This document shows, piece after piece, positions 7,101 to 57,956 of a DNA stretch of 64,000 bases; within the stretch, counting starts at the first letter, position 1; every line of letters starts with the position of its first letter. The stretch is from Escherichia coli (GTDB lineage: Bacteria > Pseudomonadota > Gammaproteobacteria > Enterobacterales > Enterobacteriaceae). The stretch is taken from assembly GCF_046105845.1 (NCBI RefSeq), contig NZ_CP151004.1; one strand, written 5' to 3'. A program made the position numbers and the translations under genes. The notes beneath the pieces are model-generated. The model did not search any database. It saw nothing but the letters and a program-made list of their open reading frames with translations, and had not been told where the DNA came from.

Positions 7101-7474
7101 TCATTTGAAATAAACTAATTTCACCTCCGTTTTCGCATTATATTTTCTAATGTCATGATTTTTTGATTTAGTGTTTTTTGACAATTTTTTAGTTCTTAAT
7201 ATTGCATTAATCAAATTAACTTTCTCATCTGTTTATCTTTATATAGAGATTTGTTCATTTTTTGGTTTTTTATTCTGTTGTGATTTTGGCGTTTTTTAAC
7301 CATAAGCTAATGTGATGATCAATTTTACCTTATGGTTAACAGTCTGTTTCGGTGGTAAGTTCAGGCAAAAGAGAACGATTGCGTTGGGGACCGGGAGTGG
7401 CTCCGATGCTGGGTTTCGTGGTGATAATTTCGCCATGGAAAAGTTGTCAGCCCCGCTTATTCAATGAGGACAAG

Positions 7475-24962: not shown

Positions 24963-25084
24963 AATTTCTCACATGTAATTCTGATCACTCATCATTATAG
25001 ATAATTGAAGAGTGAAATGATTAACCAAGTGAGCGTTTATCGACAACCGCCCGTTTTGAGCGGATGCCGACAGGTAAAAACCAT

Positions 25085-25210
25085 TTAAAAAAGTAGCATC
25101 ATATATTTGAAGCGACTTTCAATGGCCATTGCAACACAGTCAGAAATGACAGGAATAGAGAGAGTAAAAAGCAACAACAGACTGAATATAGCGCGCATTA
25201 AAAGATTCAT
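25085..25210 (-). CDS. Candidate 41-aa small hydrophobic protein translationally coupled to uacT (MNLLMRAIFSLLLLFTLSIPVISDCVAMAIESRFKYMMLLF)
   Basis: Not in the ORF track (under 60 aa). ATG 2 nt after the uacT stop, with GGAG 6 nt upstream inside the uacT 3' end; hydrophobic core typical of a small membrane protein. Possibly the known small protein yqfG, but I cannot verify that. Confidence 0.4.
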   Translation of the reverse strand: MNLLMRAIFSLLLLFTLSIPVISDCVAMAIESRFKYMMLLF

Positions 25211-25211
25211 A

Positions 25212-26660
25212 TTATTCTCCATGCTCATTTTTCTTCAGCTTGCGCATCAGAAGCCACATACGTACTGTCCTGACTTTTAAATCTTTATCAGAGACGGATT
25301 CCTTCACCAGATCAGCATGATGCTGATAGCCATTAAAGAAGACGTTCAGCACAACGGCGCTAAGGGTTGCGAGCATAATGCCGCTATGCAGCAACGGTTG
25401 CAGTACGGCCGGTAACTTAGAAAAGAAATCGTGAGAGAGCGTCGGAGTCATGCCAACGCCGAGACTGATCGCCACAATATAGAGGTTGTAACGGTTAGTG
25501 GTGTAGTTACAGCGCGACAGAATTCGAATCCCTGTCGCCAGTACCATGCCGAACATCACCAGCCCAGCACCGCCCAGCACAAATTGCGGAATGGAGGCGA
25601 CCAGCACCGCCATTTTTGGCACCATGCCAAACAGGATTAATATAATTCCCGAAGAAATACACACCCAGCGGCTATGAACGCGCGTCACGCTAACCAGGCC
25701 AACGTTTTGTGAAAATGACGTGTGGGGGAAGCTGTTAAACGTTCCGCCTATCATTGTCCCTATGCCATCGACACGCAGCCCGCGAATAATATCGTGTGAA
25801 GAGAGTTTACGACCGACTATTTCACCCAGTGCCAGGAACATCCCCATCGACTCGATAAACACGATGATTAACACGGCAGTCATGGTCAGAATGGAAACGG
25901 GATCGAAAATCGGCATACCAAATGACATCGGCGTGACAATCGCAAACCATGAAGCATCATGTAGCCCGGATAAATTGACTTCATTCATCATCCACGAAAG
26001 TAAAAAGCCAAATACAATCCCCAGTAATACGGCGACGTTGGACATAAATCCTTTCGCATAGCGAGTAATGAGCAAGATAAAAATTAAGACGGCAAAGGAG
26101 ATCCCCAAATAAACGGGATTACCATATTGCGGATTCCCTTTACCTCCGGCGGCCCAGTCAATACCCACCTGAATGATGCTAAGTCCGATAGAAGTAATAA
26201 CCACACCGGTAACCAGTGGCGGGAATAAAGGCATCAAGCGACCGATAAGTGGCGCTAATAATGTGGTGATAAAACCCGCGGCGATAGTGGCACCAAATAT
26301 CCCCAGCAGGCCGATATCCGGGTTCATCCCAATGGCTATCATTGGTGTTACAGCGGCGAAGGTCACCGACATAATCACCGGCAGGCGGATCCCCATAAAG
26401 CGGCCGATACCGATACATTGCAATAATGTGACGATCCCGCAGCAAAAGAGATCCGAGCTAATGAGCATCGCAATAGCTTCTTTTGAGAGGCCCAGTCGGT
26501 CACCAATCATAAGTGGAACAGCGACTGCACCTGCGTACATGACAAGGACGTGTTGCAGACCGAGTATGATCAGCTTTCCTGGTGATAATATGCGGTCAAC
26601 CTCATCAGTTGGGCGGTCTTGCCCTGAAGATGAGGAAAGTTGGGAATCTATGGCGCTCAT
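25212..26660 (-). CDS. uacT: Uric acid:H+ symporter (NAT/NCS2 family)
   Basis: Start set at MSAIDSQLSSSSGQDRPTDEVDRILSPGK... to give 482 aa; 12-14 TM NCS2 transporter. Confidence 0.88.
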   Translation of the reverse strand: MSAIDSQLSSSSGQDRPTDEVDRILSPGKLIILGLQHVLVMYAGAVAVPLMIGDRLGLSKEAIAMLISSDLFCCGIVTLLQCIGIGRFMGIRLPVIMSVTFAAVTPMIAIGMNPDIGLLGIFGATIAAGFITTLLAPLIGRLMPLFPPLVTGVVITSIGLSIIQVGIDWAAGGKGNPQYGNPVYLGISFAVLIFILLITRYAKGFMSNVAVLLGIVFGFLLSWMMNEVNLSGLHDASWFAIVTPMSFGMPIFDPVSILTMTAVLIIVFIESMGMFLALGEIVGRKLSSHDIIRGLRVDGIGTMIGGTFNSFPHTSFSQNVGLVSVTRVHSRWVCISSGIILILFGMVPKMAVLVASIPQFVLGGAGLVMFGMVLATGIRILSRCNYTTNRYNLYIVAISLGVGMTPTLSHDFFSKLPAVLQPLLHSGIMLATLSAVVLNVFFNGYQHHADLVKESVSDKDLKVRTVRMWLLMRKLKKNEHGE

Positions 26661-27095
26661 CAGTGTTTCTCCTTTCGCCCGCCAGAGTAAAAAGCAACCG
26701 TTTACGTTAATGAAACTGTCTAAACACATGCTCGTGGAGTGCCAGTTTTTGCGAGGAAGGGGAGTTAGAGACAGGAATTGCGGAGGCAATCACATAATCG
26801 TGGTTAAACCACGAAAATGAGAAGAGAACCTGACAATGGAATTATCTGTAATTTTCTCATATTGATATTTCATTAATCATTCTGGCATGTCGCACTCTCG
26901 CTTTTAATCGTTTTTATCTGGATAGCGCTCTTTTGGTCGGCAATGTTGAAATAATGAAAGCGGCACAGATTGAGGGGCAATAATTTGAACTCAGTCGCAA
27001 AATTATAATTAAAACGGTCATGCTACCTAATATATGCCCGTTTATTGCATCGCGAAATTTGAGAAGACATAACTCATTAAATGAAAGGGATGCAA

Positions 27096-29015
27096 ATGAA
27101 TAAGTTTATCGCTGCTGAAGCTGCGGAATGTATAGGCTGTCATGCTTGTGAAATTGCCTGTGCGGTGGCACATAATCAAGAAAACTGGCCGCTGAGTCAC
27201 AGTGACTTTCGACCGCGTATCCACGTTGTAGGGAAAGGCCAGGCTGCGAATCCGGTGGCCTGCCATCACTGCAACAATGCTCCTTGCGTTACGGTTTGTC
27301 CGGTTAATGCTCTGACTTTCCAGCCCGATAGCGTACAACTGGACGAGCAAAAATGTATTGGTTGTAAAAGATGCGCAATCGCTTGCCCCTTTGGCGTCGT
27401 TGAGATGGTCGATACGATTGCGCAGAAATGCGACCTTTGTAACCAGCGCAGTTCCGGCACGCAAGCCTGTATTGAAGTCTGCCCAACACAGGCGTTACGG
27501 CTGATGGACGATAAAGTGTTGCAGCAGATAAAGGTGGCCCGCCAGCGCAAAACGGCAGCAGGAAAAGCGTCATCAGACGCTCAGCCATCTCGCAGTGCAG
27601 CGTTGCTCCCCGTTAACTCGCGTAAAGGCGCAGATAAAATTTCAGCGAGTGAACGGAAAACCCACTTTGGCGAAATCTATTGCGGGTTGGATCCACAACA
27701 AGCGACTTATGAGAGTGACCGCTGTGTTTATTGTGCCGAAAAAGCTAACTGCAACTGGCATTGCCCGCTGCATAACGCTATTCCGGATTACATCCGTCTG
27801 GTGCAGGAAGGAAAGATTATTGAAGCGGCAGAACTTTGCCACCAGACCAGTTCCTTACCAGAAATTTGCGGCAGAGTTTGCCCACAGGACCGTCTTTGTG
27901 AAGGCGCATGTACTTTGAAAGATCACTCTGGCGCAGTCACTATCGGTAATCTGGAACGCTACATCACCGATACCGCGCTGGCGATGGGCTGGCGTCCCGA
28001 TGTCAGCAAAGTTGTTCCCCGTAGCGAAAAAGTGGCGGTGATTGGCGCTGGGCCAGCAGGGTTAGGGTGTGCTGATATTCTGGCGCGCGCAGGAGTTCAG
28101 GTTGATGTCTTTGATCGCCATCCAGAAATTGGCGGTATGCTGACTTTTGGCATTCCTCCTTTCAAACTCGATAAAACGGTATTAAGCCAGCGGCGAGAGA
28201 TATTCACCGCAATGGGAATCGACTTTCATCTCAACTGTGAAATTGGCCGCGATATTACCTTTAGCGATTTAACTTCTGAATATGATGCAGTTTTCATCGG
28301 CGTGGGGACTTACGGGATGATGCGAGCAGATCTGCCGCATGAAGATGCGCCCGGTGTCATTCAGGCTCTACCGTTCCTGACTGCCCATACCCGCCAGCTC
28401 ATGGGATTGCCGGAGTCTGAAGAGTATCCGCTGACGGACGTGGAAGGTAAGCGAGTCGTGGTATTGGGCGGTGGCGATACGACAATGGATTGTTTGCGGA
28501 CTTCCATCCGCCTCAATGCCGCCAGCGTGACCTGCGCGTATCGTCGTGATGAAGTCAGTATGCCGGGCTCGCGCAAAGAGGTGGTTAATGCGCGCGAGGA
28601 AGGTGTCGAGTTTCAGTTCAATGTTCAACCGCAATATATCGCTTGTGACGAAGATGGGCGTTTAACTGCGGTGGGCCTGATTCGTACCGCCATGGGTGAG
28701 CCGGGGCCGGATGGTCGCCGTCGTCCTCGTCCGGTAGCGGGTTCAGAGTTTGAATTGCCCGCCGATGTTCTCATTATGGCCTTTGGTTTCCAGGCGCATG
28801 CCATGCCGTGGTTGCAGGGCAGCGGAATTAAACTCGATAAATGGGGCCTGATTCAAACCGGCGACGTTGGGTATTTACCTACCCAGACGCATCTGAAAAA
28901 AGTCTTTGCTGGTGGTGATGCAGTTCATGGCGCGGATCTGGTTGTCACTGCAATGGCCGCAGGAAGGCAGGCGGCGCGCGATATGTTAACTCTGTTTGAT
29001 ACGAAGGCATCGTGA
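27096..29015 (+). CDS. ygfT: Fused Fe-S / FAD-NAD(P)-binding oxidoreductase (GltD-like beta subunit with N-terminal ferredoxin domain)
   Basis: [26 protein letters not shown]... with multiple CxxCxxCxxxCP motifs followed by the GAGPAG dinucleotide-binding motif; 639 aa from ATG 27096. Confidence 0.88.
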
Positions 29016-29503
29016 TGAAATCGTTAATTATCGTTAATCCGGCTGACTGTATTGGCTGCCGTACTTGTGAAGTAGCCTGTGTGGTCGCTCACCCTTCAGA
29101 ACAGGAGTTGAATGCCGATGTCTTTTTACCCCGGCTGAAGGTACAGCGACTGGACAGCATCAGTGCGCCGGTGATGTGCCATCAGTGTGAAAACGCCCCT
29201 TGTGTTGGCGCTTGCCCCGTGGGGGCGCTGACGATGGGCGAGCAGGTGGTGCAGACCAATTCTGCCCGTTGTATTGGCTGTCAGAGTTGCGTCAGTGCGT
29301 GCCCGTTTGGAATGATCACCATTCAGTCGTTGCCGGGGGATACCCGGCAACAAATCGTGAAATGCGATCTCTGTGAACAGCGGGAAGAGGGGCCAGCCTG
29401 CGTTGAATCTTGCCCGACACAGGCGCTGCAGTTGCTTACTGAAAGAGAACTCAGGCGAGTCCGCCAGCAGCGTATTGTTGCCAGCGGTGAGAATCCTCTG
29501 TGA
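29012..29503 (+). CDS. ygfS: 4Fe-4S ferredoxin-type electron transfer subunit
   Basis: [23 protein letters not shown]... with four Cys clusters; start overlaps the ygfT stop. Confidence 0.88.
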
Positions 29504-33840: not shown

Positions 33841-36711
33841 TTATATTTTTTCCAGCGCAGTGAGTATTTTCTCCGGTGTGAAATGCCATTCGCGTAACCA
33901 GATGCCGCAGGCATCGTGAATTGCGGTAGCAATCGCCGGAGCTGCGCCATTTACACCGATTTCCGAGATCGATTTCGCCCCGAACGGGCCGACTTTATCG
34001 TCGCTCGGCACCAGCACAGCGCGGAAATCACGCGGAATATCGCCTATTTTCGGTGCGCCGTAACTGCGTAAATCACGCGTTAACGGGTGACCTTCGGCGT
34101 CATAAATGATTTCTTCGCTCATACTGTGGCCGATTGCACGAAGGGTGGCACCGTAGATTTGTCCCAACGCTAACTCTGGATTGACCGGTGTACCGCAATC
34201 CAGCAAGGCGTAGAATTTATCCAGGCGGATTTCACCCGTACGCGTGTTGACGGCAACTTCAGCAAAGTTTGCGCCATACGGGAAGGCGAAATCAGGCGTG
34301 ATATAACTGCCAGTTCCCACCAGTGAACCAAAGCCTGTGCCGGTTTCGCCTTTATGGGCAATATCCCCGAAACTAACTTCGCCTTTCTTGCCGCGTACGA
34401 CGCCCGGCGTTGCTAGTTGGACATCTGCCACTGGCTCACCCAACATTTGCGCACCGTGGAACAGAATTTTCTCCCGCAGATTTTCTGCTGCCAAACGCGC
34501 CGCGTTACCCGAGAAGCAAGTACCGGACGAGGCATATGCGCCTTTATCAAACAACGCATGATCGGTATCACCGGAGATAACATGCACGTCCTGCGGTGGG
34601 CAGTGCAGCACTTCTGCTGCCAGTTTCGTCACCACGGTATCCAGACCAGTACCAATATCCGCACCGCCAGAATGAACGATAAAGGTACCGTCTGATTCCA
34701 GTTTGATCATGCAGTTAGCCTGATCGATATCCGGGATCCCTGATTTCTGCATGATAATGGCGACGCCACGACCGATGTGCCAGTCACCGTTTTGTGGTTT
34801 TGGTGAAGACCATTGGATCATCTCGCGACCCTGACGCAGGATCTCTTCCAGTGCGCAGCTGGCGGCGGAAGGAACGGAGGTCGGCGCTTTACCTTCACCG
34901 ATTGCACCGAGAATTTTCAGCTCTTGCCCTTCGTGTACCCGGTTACGTTCGATAATTTCCAGTTGGTCGATCTGTAACTGTTCAGCCAGTTCCGCTAATG
35001 CCATGGTGATAGCGAAGTTACCTTTCGGTGCGCCATAACCCTGATAAGCACCATTTGGGCAAATGTTGCTGTAGTAGGTGGTGACCTGGAAATCGACGTT
35101 ATCGCACGGATATAACGGCAGCGACAGCGCCGGTCCGTTACACGGTACGGTGAGTGAGTGGTTGCCGTAAGGGCCAGTGTTGGCGCGGAAATCCATCTTC
35201 ACTGCCGTCAGGCGACCATCTTTTTTCGCTCCCAGTTTGACGGTGACTTTCGCGACGTGACGAGAGGTGTTAGCAATAAACTCTTCTTCACGGGTGTAGC
35301 GGAACAGTACCGGACGCCCGGTCACGCAGGTTGCCCAGGCGCACACTTCTTCCAGCAGGATGTCCTGTTTGGAACCAAAACCGCCGCCAACTCGCTCTTT
35401 AATGACATGAACTTTATGCTGTTTCATGCCCACGAGGCGCGCGACCTGGCGGCGTAAGTGCCATGGTACCTGGGTGGAGGCGTGGATAACCAGACGATCG
35501 CCGTCCATACGGGTAAAGCAGATATGAGTTTCAGTCGGGCACTGCTGCGCCTGCGTTGAGTTATAGGTTCGCTCAATGATCACATCGGCATCGGCAAAGC
35601 CTTTGTCCATATCGCCGATATGACCATGAATACTGGCGGCGATATTTTTACGGGGGCGAGAACCGATCGGGAAGTTGATGATCATATGCTCGCCGCGCTG
35701 GGCTGCATGGCTGTTATCGTCTTCCAGAGTATCTGGCGCACCAGCAACATACACCACCGGTTCATCGTGCACGACAGGCGCATCTTCCGCCATTGCTTCG
35801 TCGATCGACATTACAGGTTTAAGCACTTCATATTCAACGTCGATGAGCTTCAGTGCTTCGAGCGCAATTTCTTCACTTTCTGCGACGACCGCAGCAACAC
35901 GATCGCCGACGTGACGCATTTTCTTGCCGAACATACGGCGGTCAAGCGGTGACGGTTCCGGTGCGCTCTGACCGCCCGGGGTATAGTAGATATCCGGGCA
36001 ATTCAGGTGAGTAATAACGTGAACAACGCCCGGTAAGGCTTCAGCTTTGCTGACATCCAGATGAGTAATCAGTGCGTGAGCGTGTGGGCTACGTAACATT
36101 TTAATGACGCAGGCGTCAGCCGTTACGCGGTCTTCAACATAGCAGGGTTTCGCCTGCACCATTTTCGCGGCATCAGTTTTAGGATAATGCTTACCAATGA
36201 CTTCAAGGTCATCGCGGAAAGTCGGAGCGATATCAATGGTGGCCTGCGGATTATTTTTACGTGCAACCGCCAGTTCAATGACCTGATAGTATTGTTGCCA
36301 GCCTGCATCGCGGCTGAACAAACCAGAAAGCGCGTCGTCGATCTCTTCGCGGGTCGGTGCGGCAATGCGATCGAGAAGATCGGTGATAATCAGAGCCGCA
36401 GCTGGATCGTTATAACCAGACTGCACCACGCCAACATCAACCATTGCCTGTTGAACCAGACTTAACTCGTTCCATTTGCCCAGAGACTCTGCGGTACGAA
36501 TATCTGCCTTCTCTAACTGTGCGGCGATAAGCAAGGACGCGTTAACGATATTACCGTTACAGATAATTGCGTCAGAACCGGCAAACCCGAATCCATCATC
36601 GCTGTTGCGTACAGAGTGCATTCCCATGTTAAACAACAGCTTTTGCACGTTTTCGCCTGGATTAACGGTTAGCTCCTGAGGCGCGCCATTTAAAGTAAAG
36701 TGGATGATCAT
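33841..36711 (-). CDS. xdhD: Molybdopterin-dependent hydroxylase, fused 2Fe-2S and Mo-binding domains (xanthine dehydrogenase family)
   Basis: 956-aa ORF MIIHFTLNGAPQELTVNPGENVQKLLFNMG...; N-terminal 2Fe-2S ferredoxin-like domain then aldehyde-oxidase/xanthine-dehydrogenase Mo domain. Confidence 0.9.
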   Translation of the reverse strand: MIIHFTLNGAPQELTVNPGENVQKLLFNMGMHSVRNSDDGFGFAGSDAIICNGNIVNASLLIAAQLEKADIRTAESLGKWNELSLVQQAMVDVGVVQSGYNDPAAALIITDLLDRIAAPTREEIDDALSGLFSRDAGWQQYYQVIELAVARKNNPQATIDIAPTFRDDLEVIGKHYPKTDAAKMVQAKPCYVEDRVTADACVIKMLRSPHAHALITHLDVSKAEALPGVVHVITHLNCPDIYYTPGGQSAPEPSPLDRRMFGKKMRHVGDRVAAVVAESEEIALEALKLIDVEYEVLKPVMSIDEAMAEDAPVVHDEPVVYVAGAPDTLEDDNSHAAQRGEHMIINFPIGSRPRKNIAASIHGHIGDMDKGFADADVIIERTYNSTQAQQCPTETHICFTRMDGDRLVIHASTQVPWHLRRQVARLVGMKQHKVHVIKERVGGGFGSKQDILLEEVCAWATCVTGRPVLFRYTREEEFIANTSRHVAKVTVKLGAKKDGRLTAVKMDFRANTGPYGNHSLTVPCNGPALSLPLYPCDNVDFQVTTYYSNICPNGAYQGYGAPKGNFAITMALAELAEQLQIDQLEIIERNRVHEGQELKILGAIGEGKAPTSVPSAASCALEEILRQGREMIQWSSPKPQNGDWHIGRGVAIIMQKSGIPDIDQANCMIKLESDGTFIVHSGGADIGTGLDTVVTKLAAEVLHCPPQDVHVISGDTDHALFDKGAYASSGTCFSGNAARLAAENLREKILFHGAQMLGEPVADVQLATPGVVRGKKGEVSFGDIAHKGETGTGFGSLVGTGSYITPDFAFPYGANFAEVAVNTRTGEIRLDKFYALLDCGTPVNPELALGQIYGATLRAIGHSMSEEIIYDAEGHPLTRDLRSYGAPKIGDIPRDFRAVLVPSDDKVGPFGAKSISEIGVNGAAPAIATAIHDACGIWLREWHFTPEKILTALEKI

Positions 36712-41967: not shown

Positions 41968-42288
41968 AACCCTCTCCTTAGCTTATACAGATATCATTGA
42001 GTGACCGGTGTTGAGAAATCCGGTGGTTTAGGGGGATAGAGCAACAATCGCACCACTCTTGCCAGGTTTGGCGGGAAATATAAAAAAATGTGAGGCGGCT
42101 CGAAACTTAAGGGCTTTTTGTGAATGAACTCACAGGTGCCAAATGAGAATTAAAATCACTCCTGAAAATTATTATTGCCAGCCCATTTATCACTTTTTCT
42201 CTTTTCTCAAAATCAGTGATTCCTTATCATTATGATAAAGAGTGCCGGAAGGATTAAATATTTGAACGCAATCGTTTAACTACGTTTT

Positions 42289-51585: not shown

Positions 51586-52060
51586 AAAGTCCCGGTAGTG
51601 GAATGACAGGCAAAGAGGTTTATTTCACTGTGACTTGCCAAAGTGATTGGTGTTTTCACAGCTATACCTGGGACTAACAATAAGTGTGCCAGAATTATCC
51701 GCGCGGCTGGAAAAGACTAATTTGACGGATAATGTGTGGGGTTGATCACAAATTGATGCCAGCTTCCGGTTGTTTGTAAAATACGAAAACGTTTGGCTTT
51801 TTTTATCGCGTTATTTATTTGCTGCTAAGTATCAGAAATAAGATAAAGGGACAGGCGATCTCTCTTCAGTTTGATAAACTCACCGCCGTAATTCTCATAT
51901 TGATATAGAAATGTGATATCTCTTCCATAATTTCATTAGAAAGTGATAAAAATCTTATGTTTTTATCAAAGCCAATTTCGCCTGAGTTAATATCATCATG
52001 ATCTATGAACCATCAACGTCTTCAATGATCGACTTTTAAGTAAGTCTGGAAGGTAAAGCT

Positions 52061-53839
52061 ATGGAGCTTGCTACTACGCAGTCAGTATTGATGCAAATTC
52101 AACCGACAATTCAGCGTTTTGCCAGAATGCTTGCCAGCGTTTTGCAGCTTGAGGTTGAGATCGTTGATGAAAACTTGTGTCGCGTCGCCGGAACGGGCGC
52201 GTATGGGAAGTTTCTTGGTCGCCAGTTGAGCGGCAACTCACGCCTGCTCCGCCACGTCCTGGAAACGAAAACTGAAAAAGTTGTGACACAGTCTCGCTTC
52301 GATCCCCTTTGTGAAGGTTGCGATAGTAAAGAAAATTGCCGCGAAAAAGCATTTCTGGGTACGCCTGTCATTTTACAGGATCGTTGTGTTGGGGTGATAA
52401 GTTTGATTGCCGTTACCCACGAGCAACAAGAGCATATTAGTGATAATTTACGCGAATTTTCTGATTACGTTCGCCATATATCCACCATTTTTGTTTCGAA
52501 ACTTCTGGAGGATCAGGGACCAGGAGATAACATCAGTAAAATATTCGCGACCATGATCGATAATATGGATCAGGGTGTATTAGTTGTTGATGACGATAAT
52601 CGGGTTCAGTTTGTTAATCAGACAGCCTTAAAAACACTCGGTGTTGTGCAAAATAATATTATTGGGAAACCTATCCGTTTCAGACCATTAACATTTGAGA
52701 GTAATTTTACCCATGGACATATGCAGCATATTGTTTCGTGGGACGATAAAAGTGAGTTAATCATTGGTCAATTGCATAACATTCAGGGCCGACAATTATT
52801 TTTAATGGCGTTTCACCAATCGCATACCAGTTTTTCTGTAGCAAATGCACCTGATGAACCGCATATTGAACAATTGGTTGGCGAGTGCCGTGTTATGCGG
52901 CAATTAAAACGACTCATTAGCCGTATTGCACCCAGCCCATCCAGCGTTATGGTGGTTGGTGAAAGCGGCACAGGTAAAGAAGTCGTCGCCCGTGCAATCC
53001 ATAAGTTGAGCGGAAGACGGAATAAACCCTTTATTGCTATCAACTGTGCCGCGATTCCGGAGCAGCTTCTGGAGAGCGAACTGTTCGGTTATGTTAAAGG
53101 CGCATTTACTGGCGCTTCTGCCAACGGTAAAACAGGGTTGATTCAGGCGGCGAATACGGGCACGCTGTTTCTCGATGAAATAGGTGATATGCCATTAATG
53201 TTGCAGGCTAAATTACTGCGCGCTATTGAGGCGCGTGAAATTCTGCCGATTGGTGCCAGTAGCCCAATACAAGTCGACATTCGCATCATTTCTGCAACTA
53301 ACCAGAATTTGGCCCAGTTCATTGCCGAAGGTAAATTCCGCGAAGATCTCTTCTACCGACTTAATGTTATCCCGATAACTCTGCCACCGCTGCGTGAACG
53401 TCAGGAAGATATTGAACTACTGGTGCATTACTTTTTACATCTGCATACCCGTCGTCTGGGATCGGTTTATCCGGGCATTGCTCCCGATGTCGTCGAAATA
53501 TTGCGTAAGCATCGTTGGCCCGGAAACCTGCGCGAGTTAAGCAATTTGATGGAATATCTGGTTAACGTGGTTCCTTCAGGTGAAGTTATCGACAGCACGC
53601 TATTGCCGCCAAATCTGCTGAATAATGGCACAACGGAGCAAAGTGGTGTAACAGAGGTCAACGAGGCGCACCTGGCACTCGATGATGCGGGCGGCACGGC
53701 GCTGGAGGAGATGGAAAAGCAAATGATCCGCGAGGCGCTTTCACGTCATAACAGCAAGAAGCAAGTTGCTGATGAACTGGGCATCGGCATTGCTACGCTC
53801 TATCGCAAGATTAAGAAATATGAGTTGTTAAACACATAA
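52061..53839 (+). CDS. ygeV: Sigma-54-dependent transcriptional activator (bacterial enhancer-binding protein)
   Basis: 592 aa; AAA+ sigma-54 interaction domain (GESGTGKE Walker A, GAFTGA motif, C-terminal HTH). Confidence 0.92.
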   Translation: MELATTQSVLMQIQPTIQRFARMLASVLQLEVEIVDENLCRVAGTGAYGKFLGRQLSGNSRLLRHVLETKTEKVVTQSRFDPLCEGCDSKENCREKAFLGTPVILQDRCVGVISLIAVTHEQQEHISDNLREFSDYVRHISTIFVSKLLEDQGPGDNISKIFATMIDNMDQGVLVVDDDNRVQFVNQTALKTLGVVQNNIIGKPIRFRPLTFESNFTHGHMQHIVSWDDKSELIIGQLHNIQGRQLFLMAFHQSHTSFSVANAPDEPHIEQLVGECRVMRQLKRLISRIAPSPSSVMVVGESGTGKEVVARAIHKLSGRRNKPFIAINCAAIPEQLLESELFGYVKGAFTGASANGKTGLIQAANTGTLFLDEIGDMPLMLQAKLLRAIEAREILPIGASSPIQVDIRIISATNQNLAQFIAEGKFREDLFYRLNVIPITLPPLRERQEDIELLVHYFLHLHTRRLGSVYPGIAPDVVEILRKHRWPGNLRELSNLMEYLVNVVPSGEVIDSTLLPPNLLNNGTTEQSGVTEVNEAHLALDDAGGTALEEMEKQMIREALSRHNSKKQVADELGIGIATLYRKIKKYELLNT

Positions 53840-57502: not shown

Positions 57503-57649
57503 GCAAGATTCACCCGTAGCGGTTGCTTCCCGCGCTTCCATAGAAATCCCCTCGATTTGAACATTTGGTTCTTATGGCAAAGATTTAGTCTAAGCAGGCA
57601 AGATTTACGCCAGAAACGACGATAAGCGTTAAGGGAGGAAGGAAGTGTG

Positions 57650-57697
57650 ATGACGTTAAAAAAACACAGATATGATACGAAACAGGACCCTGAATAG
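57650..57697 (+). CDS. Candidate 15-aa ORF with strong SD (MTLKKHRYDTKQDPE) in the xdhA-ygeR divergent region
   Basis: aagggaggaaggaagtgtgATG: SD-like GGGAGG/GGAAGG upstream of the ATG; not in the ORF track; function unknown, may be spurious. Confidence 0.2.
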   Translation: MTLKKHRYDTKQDPE

Positions 57698-57956
57698 GGG
57701 CAGTGATACGTATCAATATGAGTGGCGATAAAATCAATGTGATAAATTGGGATTATTACGCATCAGGATGGGAAATAGGGTAAATGAGTCAGGAAATTCG
57801 ATACATCTATAGTGAATATTTTGCTGATGATACTTCCCTTTGCCAAATGAAATTAACCTCTTTCTCTATTACCGCGTTTTTCCAGAAGCAAGAGATTGGG
57901 TATCCAGAGGCTGGCTGCTATGATATGGCGTCTTGTTTTTTAAGCGAGGAAAGATT

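Follow-up and report, generated by a model that had tools for sequence, protein, structure and literature searches.

A candidate bidirectional, enhancer-dependent control region between uacT and ygfT in the purine/urate catabolic island of Escherichia coli

Back-to-back transcription units read by sigma-54 RNA polymerase, with the sites of their activator located between them, are found in Escherichia coli at hycA–hypA (activator FhlA) and zraP–zraSR (activator ZraR). In both cases, the two members of the pair are sites in the sigma-54 chromatin immunoprecipitation sequencing (ChIP-seq) map (OS27/OS28 and OS38/OS39, respectively), and the activator gene resides in the same island. At the purB operator, PurR acts as an intragenic roadblock. 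Finally, the prpR–prpBCDE control region, reportedly described by Lee et al. in 2005 (J Bacteriol), is said to combine sigma-54, PrpR, IHF and CRP. Here we analyse the 435-bp spacer that separates the divergent genes uacT, encoding a urate transporter, and ygfT, the first gene of the ygfT–ygfS operon, in a 64,000-nucleotide stretch of E. coli DNA (contig NZ_CP151004.1; hereafter, the window). We propose that this spacer is probably a bidirectional, enhancer-dependent control region of the purine/urate catabolic island.

The spacer resembles hycA–hypA and zraP–zraSR in that activator sites would lie between two back-to-back sigma-54 units and in that the activator gene, in this case ygeV, belongs to the same island. 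It differs from them in that sigma-54 binding is seen at ygfT only, the uacT promoter being predicted; in that both motifs are off consensus, with TG in place of GG at ygfT and GAGCA in place of TTGCA at uacT; and in that PurR boxes are present downstream of both promoters. The two motifs are 288 bp apart, compared with approximately 150 bp at zraP–zraS. The likeness to prp is said to lie in the cyclic AMP (cAMP)–CRP control exerted between the enhancer and a catabolic sigma-54 promoter, whereas at prp the divergent gene, unlike uacT, reportedly encodes the regulator and has a sigma-70 promoter. A further difference is that at uacT–ygfT the involvement of CRP is deduced from sequence, each site having two mismatches. 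The prpB promoter is itself sigma-54 ChIP-seq site OS01 (PMC4591121).

Published data place the two units under common control. Independent-component analysis of RNA sequencing data assigns ygfT, uacT, xdhABC, ygeWXY–hyuA and ygfK–ssnA–ygfM–xdhD to a single iModulon, labelled YgeV (PMC10602906; PMC12133099). A passage of PMC10602906 also cites, second-hand, a reduced expression of ygfT in a ygeV mutant. Uric acid strongly induces ygfT and ygfK (bioRxiv 2022.07.24.501321), and the island is almost silent under laboratory conditions (PMC10602906). An earlier note on this DNA, made from the sequence alone, had described a 435-bp AT-rich interval between divergent units and suggested shared regulation by purine or anaerobic signals, to be refuted if the two units showed no coordinated regulation. 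The interval is exact to the base, its GC content is 0.395 compared with 0.504 for the window, and the presence of ygfT and uacT in one iModulon argues for coordination. The purine part of the suggestion is borne out by a PurR-bound region seen with adenine, by the best PurR-matrix match of the window, which lies in the spacer, and by induction with uric acid. The anaerobic part is not backed by the sequence, as no FNR box (TTGAT-N4-ATCAA) is found at two or fewer mismatches within 26661–27095.

The promoter on the ygfT side is occupied in vivo. The intergenic ChIP-seq site OS32 (Bonocora et al., PMC4591121) is assigned to ygfT with exactly the motif given in Table 1; its enrichment is low (fold above threshold 3), and its start site is 36 nt from the ATG, which places it at about position 27060 of the window. 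An independent RpoN peak, B83, obtained by chromatin immunoprecipitation with exonuclease digestion (ChIP-exo; U00096.3 3030971–3030985; PMC9735260), converts to window positions 27042–27056, on the −12 element of the same promoter. The sigma-54 sites that the earlier note had proposed to look for are thus confirmed for ygfT. Scored with a matrix built from the other 49 intergenic sites of Bonocora Table 1, this promoter reaches 5.9 bits, lower than any training site (minimum 7.4, median 16.1). Its −12 TTGCA is perfect, and the low score arises because −25/−24 is TG instead of GG. Sigma-54 RNA polymerase therefore occupies a non-canonical ygfT promoter, one that is genuine but weak by sequence. 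The potF site (OS08, TATGCACGTTTATTGCA) is similar, including the unusual TG at −25/−24: the ygfT and potF sites have a 19-mer in common with a one-base difference (ATATGC[C/A]CGTTTATTGCAT; window 27032–27050 and upstream of potF in K-12), and both are weakly enriched (fold above threshold 2 for potF and 3 for ygfT). The two genes belong to different regulons, potFGHI being devoted to putrescine uptake and thought to be nitrogen-regulated.

Conservation of the spacer was assessed by aligning eight sequences: the window, K-12, another E. coli, three further species of Escherichia and a pair of Citrobacter. The orthologous spacers beyond the window and K-12 were gathered by one search of genome contigs with YgfT and come from Escherichia and Citrobacter only; YgfT matches in Pantoea, Dickeya, Enterovibrio and Buttiauxella (54–60% identity) have no adjacent uacT and were left out. 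Identity to the window ranges from 99% (K-12) down to 64% (Citrobacter R56). Six invariant runs of at least 10 bp are present, compared with 0.25 expected when the invariant columns are shuffled (maximum of 3 in 2,000 shuffles), and all six coincide with predicted elements (Table 1). By contrast, the region 26890–26975 is weakly conserved and bears an insertion in Citrobacter R56.

Two alternatives bear on this pattern, and we consider both extremely improbable. The spacer might be ordinary AT-rich DNA of the kind found between genes, perhaps under H-NS silencing, with independent, unremarkable promoters and motifs that occur by chance. AT-richness, a usual property of E. coli intergenic DNA, indeed carries little information by itself, the sigma-54, CRP and IHF matches in the spacer are individually weak, and the island is nearly silent in the laboratory; however, the number and placement of the invariant runs, the in vivo binding of sigma-54 and PurR, an exact 13-mer in common with the ygeV–ygeW spacer and the co-expression of uacT and ygfT all run counter to this explanation, which is already contradicted by the conservation and ChIP data. 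Alternatively, a structured RNA, such as a riboswitch or small RNA, or a small encoded protein might explain the conservation. Two 35-codon open reading frames (ORFs) exist on the − strand (26873–26980 and 26914–27021), but they occupy the least conserved part of the spacer, the poor conservation of which argues against them, as does the R56 insertion. We rejected these ORFs, the start codons of which are lost in other Escherichia and the reading frames of which are not conserved. A search of Rfam (E ≤ 1) over 25000–29000 gave no match in the spacer.

A perfect palindrome, CGTGGTTAAACCACG (26799–26813), was considered as a core element and rejected. It is found in the window and in K-12 but is degraded in other E. 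coli, Escherichia and Citrobacter; being confined to K-12-like E. coli, it appears lineage-specific and is probably not essential.

A 13-bp dyad located at the centre of the spacer was revealed by comparing the regions upstream of the strongest sigma-54 motifs of the window, those of ygeW, xdhA and ygfK. It recurs without change in the ygeV–ygeW spacer and in closely related form upstream of xdhA and ygfK (Table 1). At two or fewer mismatches, the dyad has 8 matches compared with 1.18 expected, a number reached in none of 100 shuffles. Both the dyad and the 9-bp run that follows it are invariant in all eight taxa, from E. coli to Citrobacter. The centre of the dyad is 104 bp (xdhA), 116 bp (uacT), 172 bp (ygfT), 175 bp (ygfK) and 207 bp (ygeW) upstream of the respective sigma-54 motif, distances that are typical for enhancers. 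Four dyads are thus available for five sigma-54 motifs, and the uacT–ygfT dyad would serve two; it precedes the predicted uacT start site by approximately 143 bp and that of ygfT by approximately 199 bp.

YgeV contains a PAS, a Sigma54_activat and a Fis-type HTH_8 domain (Pfam), as in a sigma-54 activator. The ygfT promoter thereby has both an activator of the expected type and, 172 bp upstream, a candidate upstream activating sequence within the usual 80–250 bp, the binding of the one to the other being presumed. From its co-occurrence with the YgeV-associated operons and its conservation, we think it probable that the dyad is the YgeV binding site. Weighing against this assignment, the literature searched contained no paper defining a YgeV binding site and no experiment tying YgeV to the dyad. 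The dyad might instead be bound by another regulator (Fur-like or an unknown repressor) or by an architectural protein, with YgeV acting elsewhere in the spacer. The ygfK version has the 10-mer ATAATGATAA in common with the Fur-box consensus, sites of bacterial enhancer-binding proteins are usually longer dyads and often paired, and YgeV binding data were not found in the literature searched. Set against this are the location of the dyad in the control regions of YgeV iModulon operons, 104–207 bp upstream of sigma-54 motifs, the fact that the dyad-associated genes make up an iModulon of their own, labelled YgeV, and, at xdhA and ygfK, the presence of weaker second copies at a distance of 20–21 bp. 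We regard binding by a protein other than YgeV as rather unlikely.

The weaker copies, at 57732–57744 (xdhA) and 42205–42217 (ygfK), are two helical turns from the main dyads and hint at paired activator sites. In the uacT–ygfT spacer, no equivalent second copy is evident, and the dyad is followed instead by the conserved extension TTTCATTAATCATT.

Transcription of uacT is less easily assigned. Among sigma-54 matches on the uacT strand of the spacer, CTGGCAC-N5-GAGCA ranks first; transcription from it would start at about 26718 and give a leader of approximately 58 nt. The −24 half, CTGGCAC, is perfect and the GC at −13/−12 is kept, although the −12 element reads GAGCA, not TTGCA. Both halves lie within invariant runs, and the only substitutions within the motif are C/T after TGGCA (TGGCAY) and at the next base, positions at which the consensus tolerates change. 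That uacT is read from its own weak sigma-54 promoter at this motif is, in our estimate, a little short of an even chance. Several observations count against it. The motif scores 5.65 bits, which is below all 49 training sites (minimum 7.4), and ranks 167 in the window. No sigma-54 peak is found there in the high- or low-stringency ChIP-seq lists (Bonocora Table 1 and S2) or in the RpoN ChIP-exo list, whereas both data sets detect the ygfT site approximately 300 bp away. In addition, no published transcription start site for uacT or ygfT was found in the literature searched. Another sigma-54-like string in the spacer, CTGGCATGTCGCACTCT (26882–26898, + strand), was rejected, as it is devoid of GC at −12 and scores 4.2 bits.

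The main rival explanation is that dependence on sigma-54 and YgeV is confined to ygfT–ygfS. In that case uacT, like other nucleobase permease genes, would have a weak sigma-70 promoter that overlaps the PurR box, the conserved block 26726–26750 would be occupied by a different protein, and uacT would be co-expressed with the island because both respond to CRP, to PurR or to an unidentified urate-responsive factor. Two independent in vivo data sets show no sigma-54 at uacT and the matrix score is low, both of which fit this explanation; so do the direct repression by PurR of three permease genes (xanP, yieG and yjcD) that have their boxes in the −35/−10 region, and the presence of a poor −10-like hexamer, TTTACT (26691–26686; TTTAAT in Citrobacter MGH106), just downstream of the PurR box. 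However, this hexamer, the sole candidate near the PurR box and picked by eye, is missing the key A at position 2, and the corresponding −35 (TTCATT) matches at 3 of 6 positions and is not conserved. A simple promoter scan found no sigma-70 promoter or terminator within the spacer, its sole match (27148–27176) being inside ygfT. Furthermore, uacT co-varies with genes having sigma-54-bound promoters, and the invariant CTGGCAC together with the upstream AAAAC fully matches the extended sigma-54 consensus. On balance, a sigma-70 promoter for uacT seems to us unlikely.

The leader of uacT contains a candidate PurR operator, at approximately +12 to +27 of the predicted start site. With a PurR matrix built from 23 sites of Cho et al. 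defined by chromatin immunoprecipitation on microarrays (ChIP-chip; two window sites excluded), this box scores 19.3 bits, the highest of 128,000 positions in 64 kb, where 0.01 such matches would be expected; the training median is 20.1. It fits the 16-bp palindrome ACGNAAACGTTTGCNT with a central CG, and most of it falls in a run (26690–26705) that is invariant in 8 of 8 taxa. In its palindrome, its central CG and a score near the median of ChIP-defined sites, it is like the operators of the purine regulon, and it adjoins a nucleobase permease gene, as at xanP, yieG and yjcD. The difference is that the PurR targets here are catabolic and sigma-54-read, whereas those of the purine regulon are biosynthetic or salvage genes and sigma-70-read. 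Matrix score and invariance together suggest that the leader box is probably a PurR operator.

The in vivo PurR data are centred elsewhere, which speaks against that assignment. The ChIP-chip region assigned to 'ygfT-ygfS', seen only with adenine and with a maximal ratio (Cho et al., PMC3159470), maps to window positions 26798–27834 after a check of the 1978-bp offset between K-12 genome versions; it leaves 91 bp between its end and the leader box, and its centre is closer to a second box, inside ygfT. The motif search of Cho et al. was restricted to called regions, so that the stronger leader box would be missed, and the motif assignment for 'ygfT-ygfS' is likely to be incomplete. Counted from the ygfT start site, the intragenic box spans approximately +313 to +328, a position similar to that of the purB operator. 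It encodes CAIACP of a ferredoxin motif, and yet in the first 870 nt of ygfT no other nucleotide run invariant among 7 taxa is as long (17 nt); its five fully invariant codons correspond to about the 95th percentile of shuffles. This pattern is suggestive but falls short of being conclusive. Cho et al. report PurR binding but no expression change for these catabolic targets (PMC3159470).

Two other PurR sites of the window may be mentioned here. In the ygeV–ygeW spacer, a PurR-type box sits between the CRP site and the dyad (Table 1). The known gcvT site, AAGAGAACGATTGCGT (7369–7384), scores 17.5 bits and serves as an internal positive control, although it is part of the training set.

CRP-like sites (TGTGA-N6-TCACA, two or fewer mismatches) are found just upstream of each of the five sigma-54 promoters (Table 1). 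Their centres are approximately 0, 10 and 30 bp apart in distance from the promoter, which puts them on one helix face. On the uacT side, the TGTGA half is well conserved, falling in an 11-bp invariant run. On the ygfT side, the right half reads TCACA in Esp_MOD1, Esp_E1V33 and E. whittamii. This site overlaps an IHF-like core, GTTCAAATTATTG (− strand, 26978–26990), accompanied by an A/T tract (26999–27014); the E. coli core has two mismatches to WATCAANNNNTTR, whereas its counterpart in Escherichia sp. E1V33 is a perfect WATCAANNNNTTR. The sole spacer match to IHF at one or fewer mismatches overlaps the PurR box and was taken as chance. A 2025 paper reports that glucose represses urate degradation by E. 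coli and cites a native Crp site in the ygeV–ygeW spacer. From their positions, we infer with moderate confidence that the CRP-like sites provide bending and a catabolite input. Counting against such a role, CRP-like matches are not enriched window-wide (35 compared with 28 expected), the two sites in the spacer have two core mismatches each, and the ygfT-side site is only partly conserved, in addition to overlapping the IHF-like sequence.

Together, these elements suggest how the region might operate. YgeV (PAS/AAA+/Fis-HTH) would bind the central dyad and, by DNA looping, contact sigma-54 polymerase on the ygfT side and probably on the uacT side too, where the promoter would be the conserved CTGGCAC-N5-GAGCA motif. 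Bending would be provided by the CRP-like sites, which would also make expression dependent on cAMP and thereby subject to glucose repression. PurR with hypoxanthine or guanine would bind downstream of each promoter, within the uacT leader on one side and within ygfT on the other, and would there block promoter escape or elongation. At xdhA, ygeW and ygfK, too, a dyad, a CRP-like site and a sigma-54 promoter occur together, with a PurR box at two of the three; this common set would allow the transporter and the enzymes to be switched on together in the presence of urate, at high cAMP levels and when few purines are left for salvage. The joint reading, a three-input hub in which one YgeV enhancer serves two divergent, deliberately weak sigma-54 promoters, CRP replaces IHF as a phased bender at every promoter of the regulon (centres at about −68, −78 and −98) and PurR acts as a downstream block, is in our view less likely than not, and we put it forward tentatively. 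If true, it would represent an unusual use of PurR, a classical repressor of sigma-70 promoters, and would mean that the published PurR motif for 'ygfT-ygfS' misses a stronger operator controlling uacT.

The sigma-54 site at ygfT, the PurR region and the shared iModulon are already published. To our knowledge, and relative to the literature searched, the base-level description of the shared enhancer, the candidate uacT promoter, the spacing of the CRP-like sites and the stronger PurR box are new. Current understanding is not overturned; rather, a regulon that had been delineated only through ChIP peaks and the clustering of expression data is filled in with candidates testable at the level of bases: a possible 13-bp YgeV enhancer of four control regions, a promoter for the urate importer, and catabolite and purine-repressor inputs. 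Degradation of urate by gut Enterobacteria lowers host urate, and the urate island is being engineered in probiotic E. coli, its native control being replaced as poorly understood and glucose-repressed (2025 paper).

Table 1 Features of the uacT–ygfT spacer and related elements in the window (a full stop denotes no strand)
Feature	Position	Strand	Sequence	Basis or remarks
Divergent intergenic control region uacT–ygfT	26661–27095	.		ORF and annotation mapping, GC, conservation blocks
uacT, urate:H+ symporter	25212–26660	−		Annotation, Pfam
ygfT–ygfS operon, Fe-S flavoprotein and ferredoxin-like protein, formate-dependent urate utilisation	27096–29503	+		Annotation, Pfam
ygeV, sigma-54 enhancer-binding protein of the island	52061–53839	+		Pfam domains, literature
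Putative central shared upstream activating sequence	26853–26887	.	Dyad TCTCATATTGATA (26855–26867) and conserved TTAATCATT	Recurrence, invariance
Dyad copy, uacT–ygfT spacer	26855–26867		TCTCATATTGATA	13 bp
Dyad copy, ygeV–ygeW spacer	51893–51905		TCTCATATTGATA	Exact 13-mer
Dyad copy, upstream of xdhA	57711–57723		ACTCATATTGATA	1 mismatch
Dyad copy, upstream of ygfK	42225–42237		TATCATAATGATA	Perfect palindrome
Sigma-54 promoter of ygfT–ygfS	27033–27049	+	TATGCCCGTTTATTGCA	ChIP-seq OS32, ChIP-exo B83, invariant run
Candidate sigma-54 promoter of uacT	26729–26745	−	CTGGCAC-N5-GAGCA (CTGGCACTCCACGAGCA, 26745–26729)	Pattern match, conservation
Sigma-54 motif, ygeW	51692–51676			Among published ChIP-seq sites OS29–OS31
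Sigma-54 motif, xdhA	57613–57597			Among published ChIP-seq sites OS29–OS31
Sigma-54 motif, ygfK	42056–42040			Among published ChIP-seq sites OS29–OS31
CRP-like site, uacT	26779–26794		TGTGATTGCCTCCGCA	In conserved block 26775–26799; 2 mismatches; centre 41.5 bp upstream
CRP-like site, ygfT	26984–26999		TTTGAACTCAGTCGCA	2 mismatches; centre 41.5 bp upstream of sigma-54 motif
CRP-like site, ygfK	42119–42134			0 mismatches; centre 70.5 bp upstream of sigma-54 motif
CRP-like site, ygeW	51735–51750			1 mismatch; centre 50.5 bp upstream of sigma-54 motif
CRP-like site, xdhA	57646–57661			2 mismatches; centre 40.5 bp upstream of sigma-54 motif
Bend-site candidate between dyad and ygfT promoter	26978–27014	.		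CRP-like site, IHF-like core, A/T tract
PurR-type operator, uacT leader (candidate)	26692–26707	−	ACGTAAACGGTTGCTT	Matrix, invariance; 32–47 bp upstream of ATG
Second PurR box, inside ygfT	27373–27388	−	GGGCAAGCGATTGCGC	Motif assigned by Cho et al.; 14.2 bits
PurR box, upstream of ygfK	42266–42281			18.3 bits; within another Cho ChIP-chip region
PurR-type box, ygeV–ygeW spacer	51783–51798		ACGAAAACGTTTGGCT	17.0 bits; absent from Cho table
Invariant run, 19 bp	27032–27050	+	ATATGCCCGTTTATTGCAT	Longest in spacer
Invariant run, 16 bp	26690–26705	+	AAAAGCAACCGTTTAC	8-taxon alignment
Invariant run, 15 bp	26853–26867	+	TTTCTCATATTGATA	8-taxon alignment
Invariant run, 11 bp	26788–26798	+	AATCACATAAT	8-taxon alignment
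Invariant run, 10 bp	26728–26737	+	ATGCTCGTGG	8-taxon alignment
Invariant run, 10 bp	26740–26749	+	TGCCAGTTTT	8-taxon alignment
Invariant run, 9 bp	26873–26881	+	TTAATCATT	8-taxon alignment
Invariant run, 7 bp	26668–26674	+	TCTCCTT	uacT ribosome-binding site on the other strand

The DNA of the window is chromosomal and shows 100% identity to E. coli strain GF43, and the uacT–ygfT region is found in 5,330 of 5,426 complete E. coli genomes. The start codon of uacT is read as CAT on the + strand (26658–26660; the gene is on the − strand, with its start at 26660), and the RefSeq ATG of ygfT is at 27096, on the + strand, with ygfS next downstream, so that ORF and annotation mapping gives a spacer of exactly 435 bp. 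Its K-12 counterpart (3030932–3031366), between ygfT (b2887) and uacT (b2888), is likewise 435 bp long. The GC content of the spacer (39.5%) compares with 0.490 for uacT and 0.529 for ygfT. UacT is a nucleobase permease (Pfam Xan_ur_permease), YgfT an Fe-S/flavin oxidoreductase (Fer4, Fer4_20 and Pyr_redox_2) and YgfS a ferredoxin-like protein (4Fe-4S dicluster); the RefSeq product names are urate/proton symporter and formate-dependent uric acid utilization protein.

An in-frame ATG is present 15 nt 5′ of the annotated ygfT start (27081–27095) and would give a product of 644 amino acids. It reads GTG in Citrobacter MGH106, and an intervening ATG is missing in both Citrobacter. Since the upstream ATG is not kept in Citrobacter, the conserved start codon is the annotated one, at 27096.

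Just downstream of uacT, between uacT and idi, two small genes are annotated at about 25017–25210: yqfG (41 amino acids), which directly follows uacT on the same strand, and yqfH (23 amino acids), which overlaps it on the opposite strand. The sole match of the Rfam search, at 25039–25141 and thus outside the spacer, falls in this area; it is a sub-threshold match to an Enterococcus small RNA model (E = 0.08) and probably arises by chance.

Finally, the second-best sigma-54 matrix match in the window, ATGGCGCAAACTTTGCT (34261–34277, − strand; 16.0 bits), lies inside xdhD in sense orientation, with xanQ approximately 585 bp further downstream. The published sigma-54 ChIP-seq lists do not include it; it could be either an internal promoter for xanQ–guaD or an unbound look-alike.

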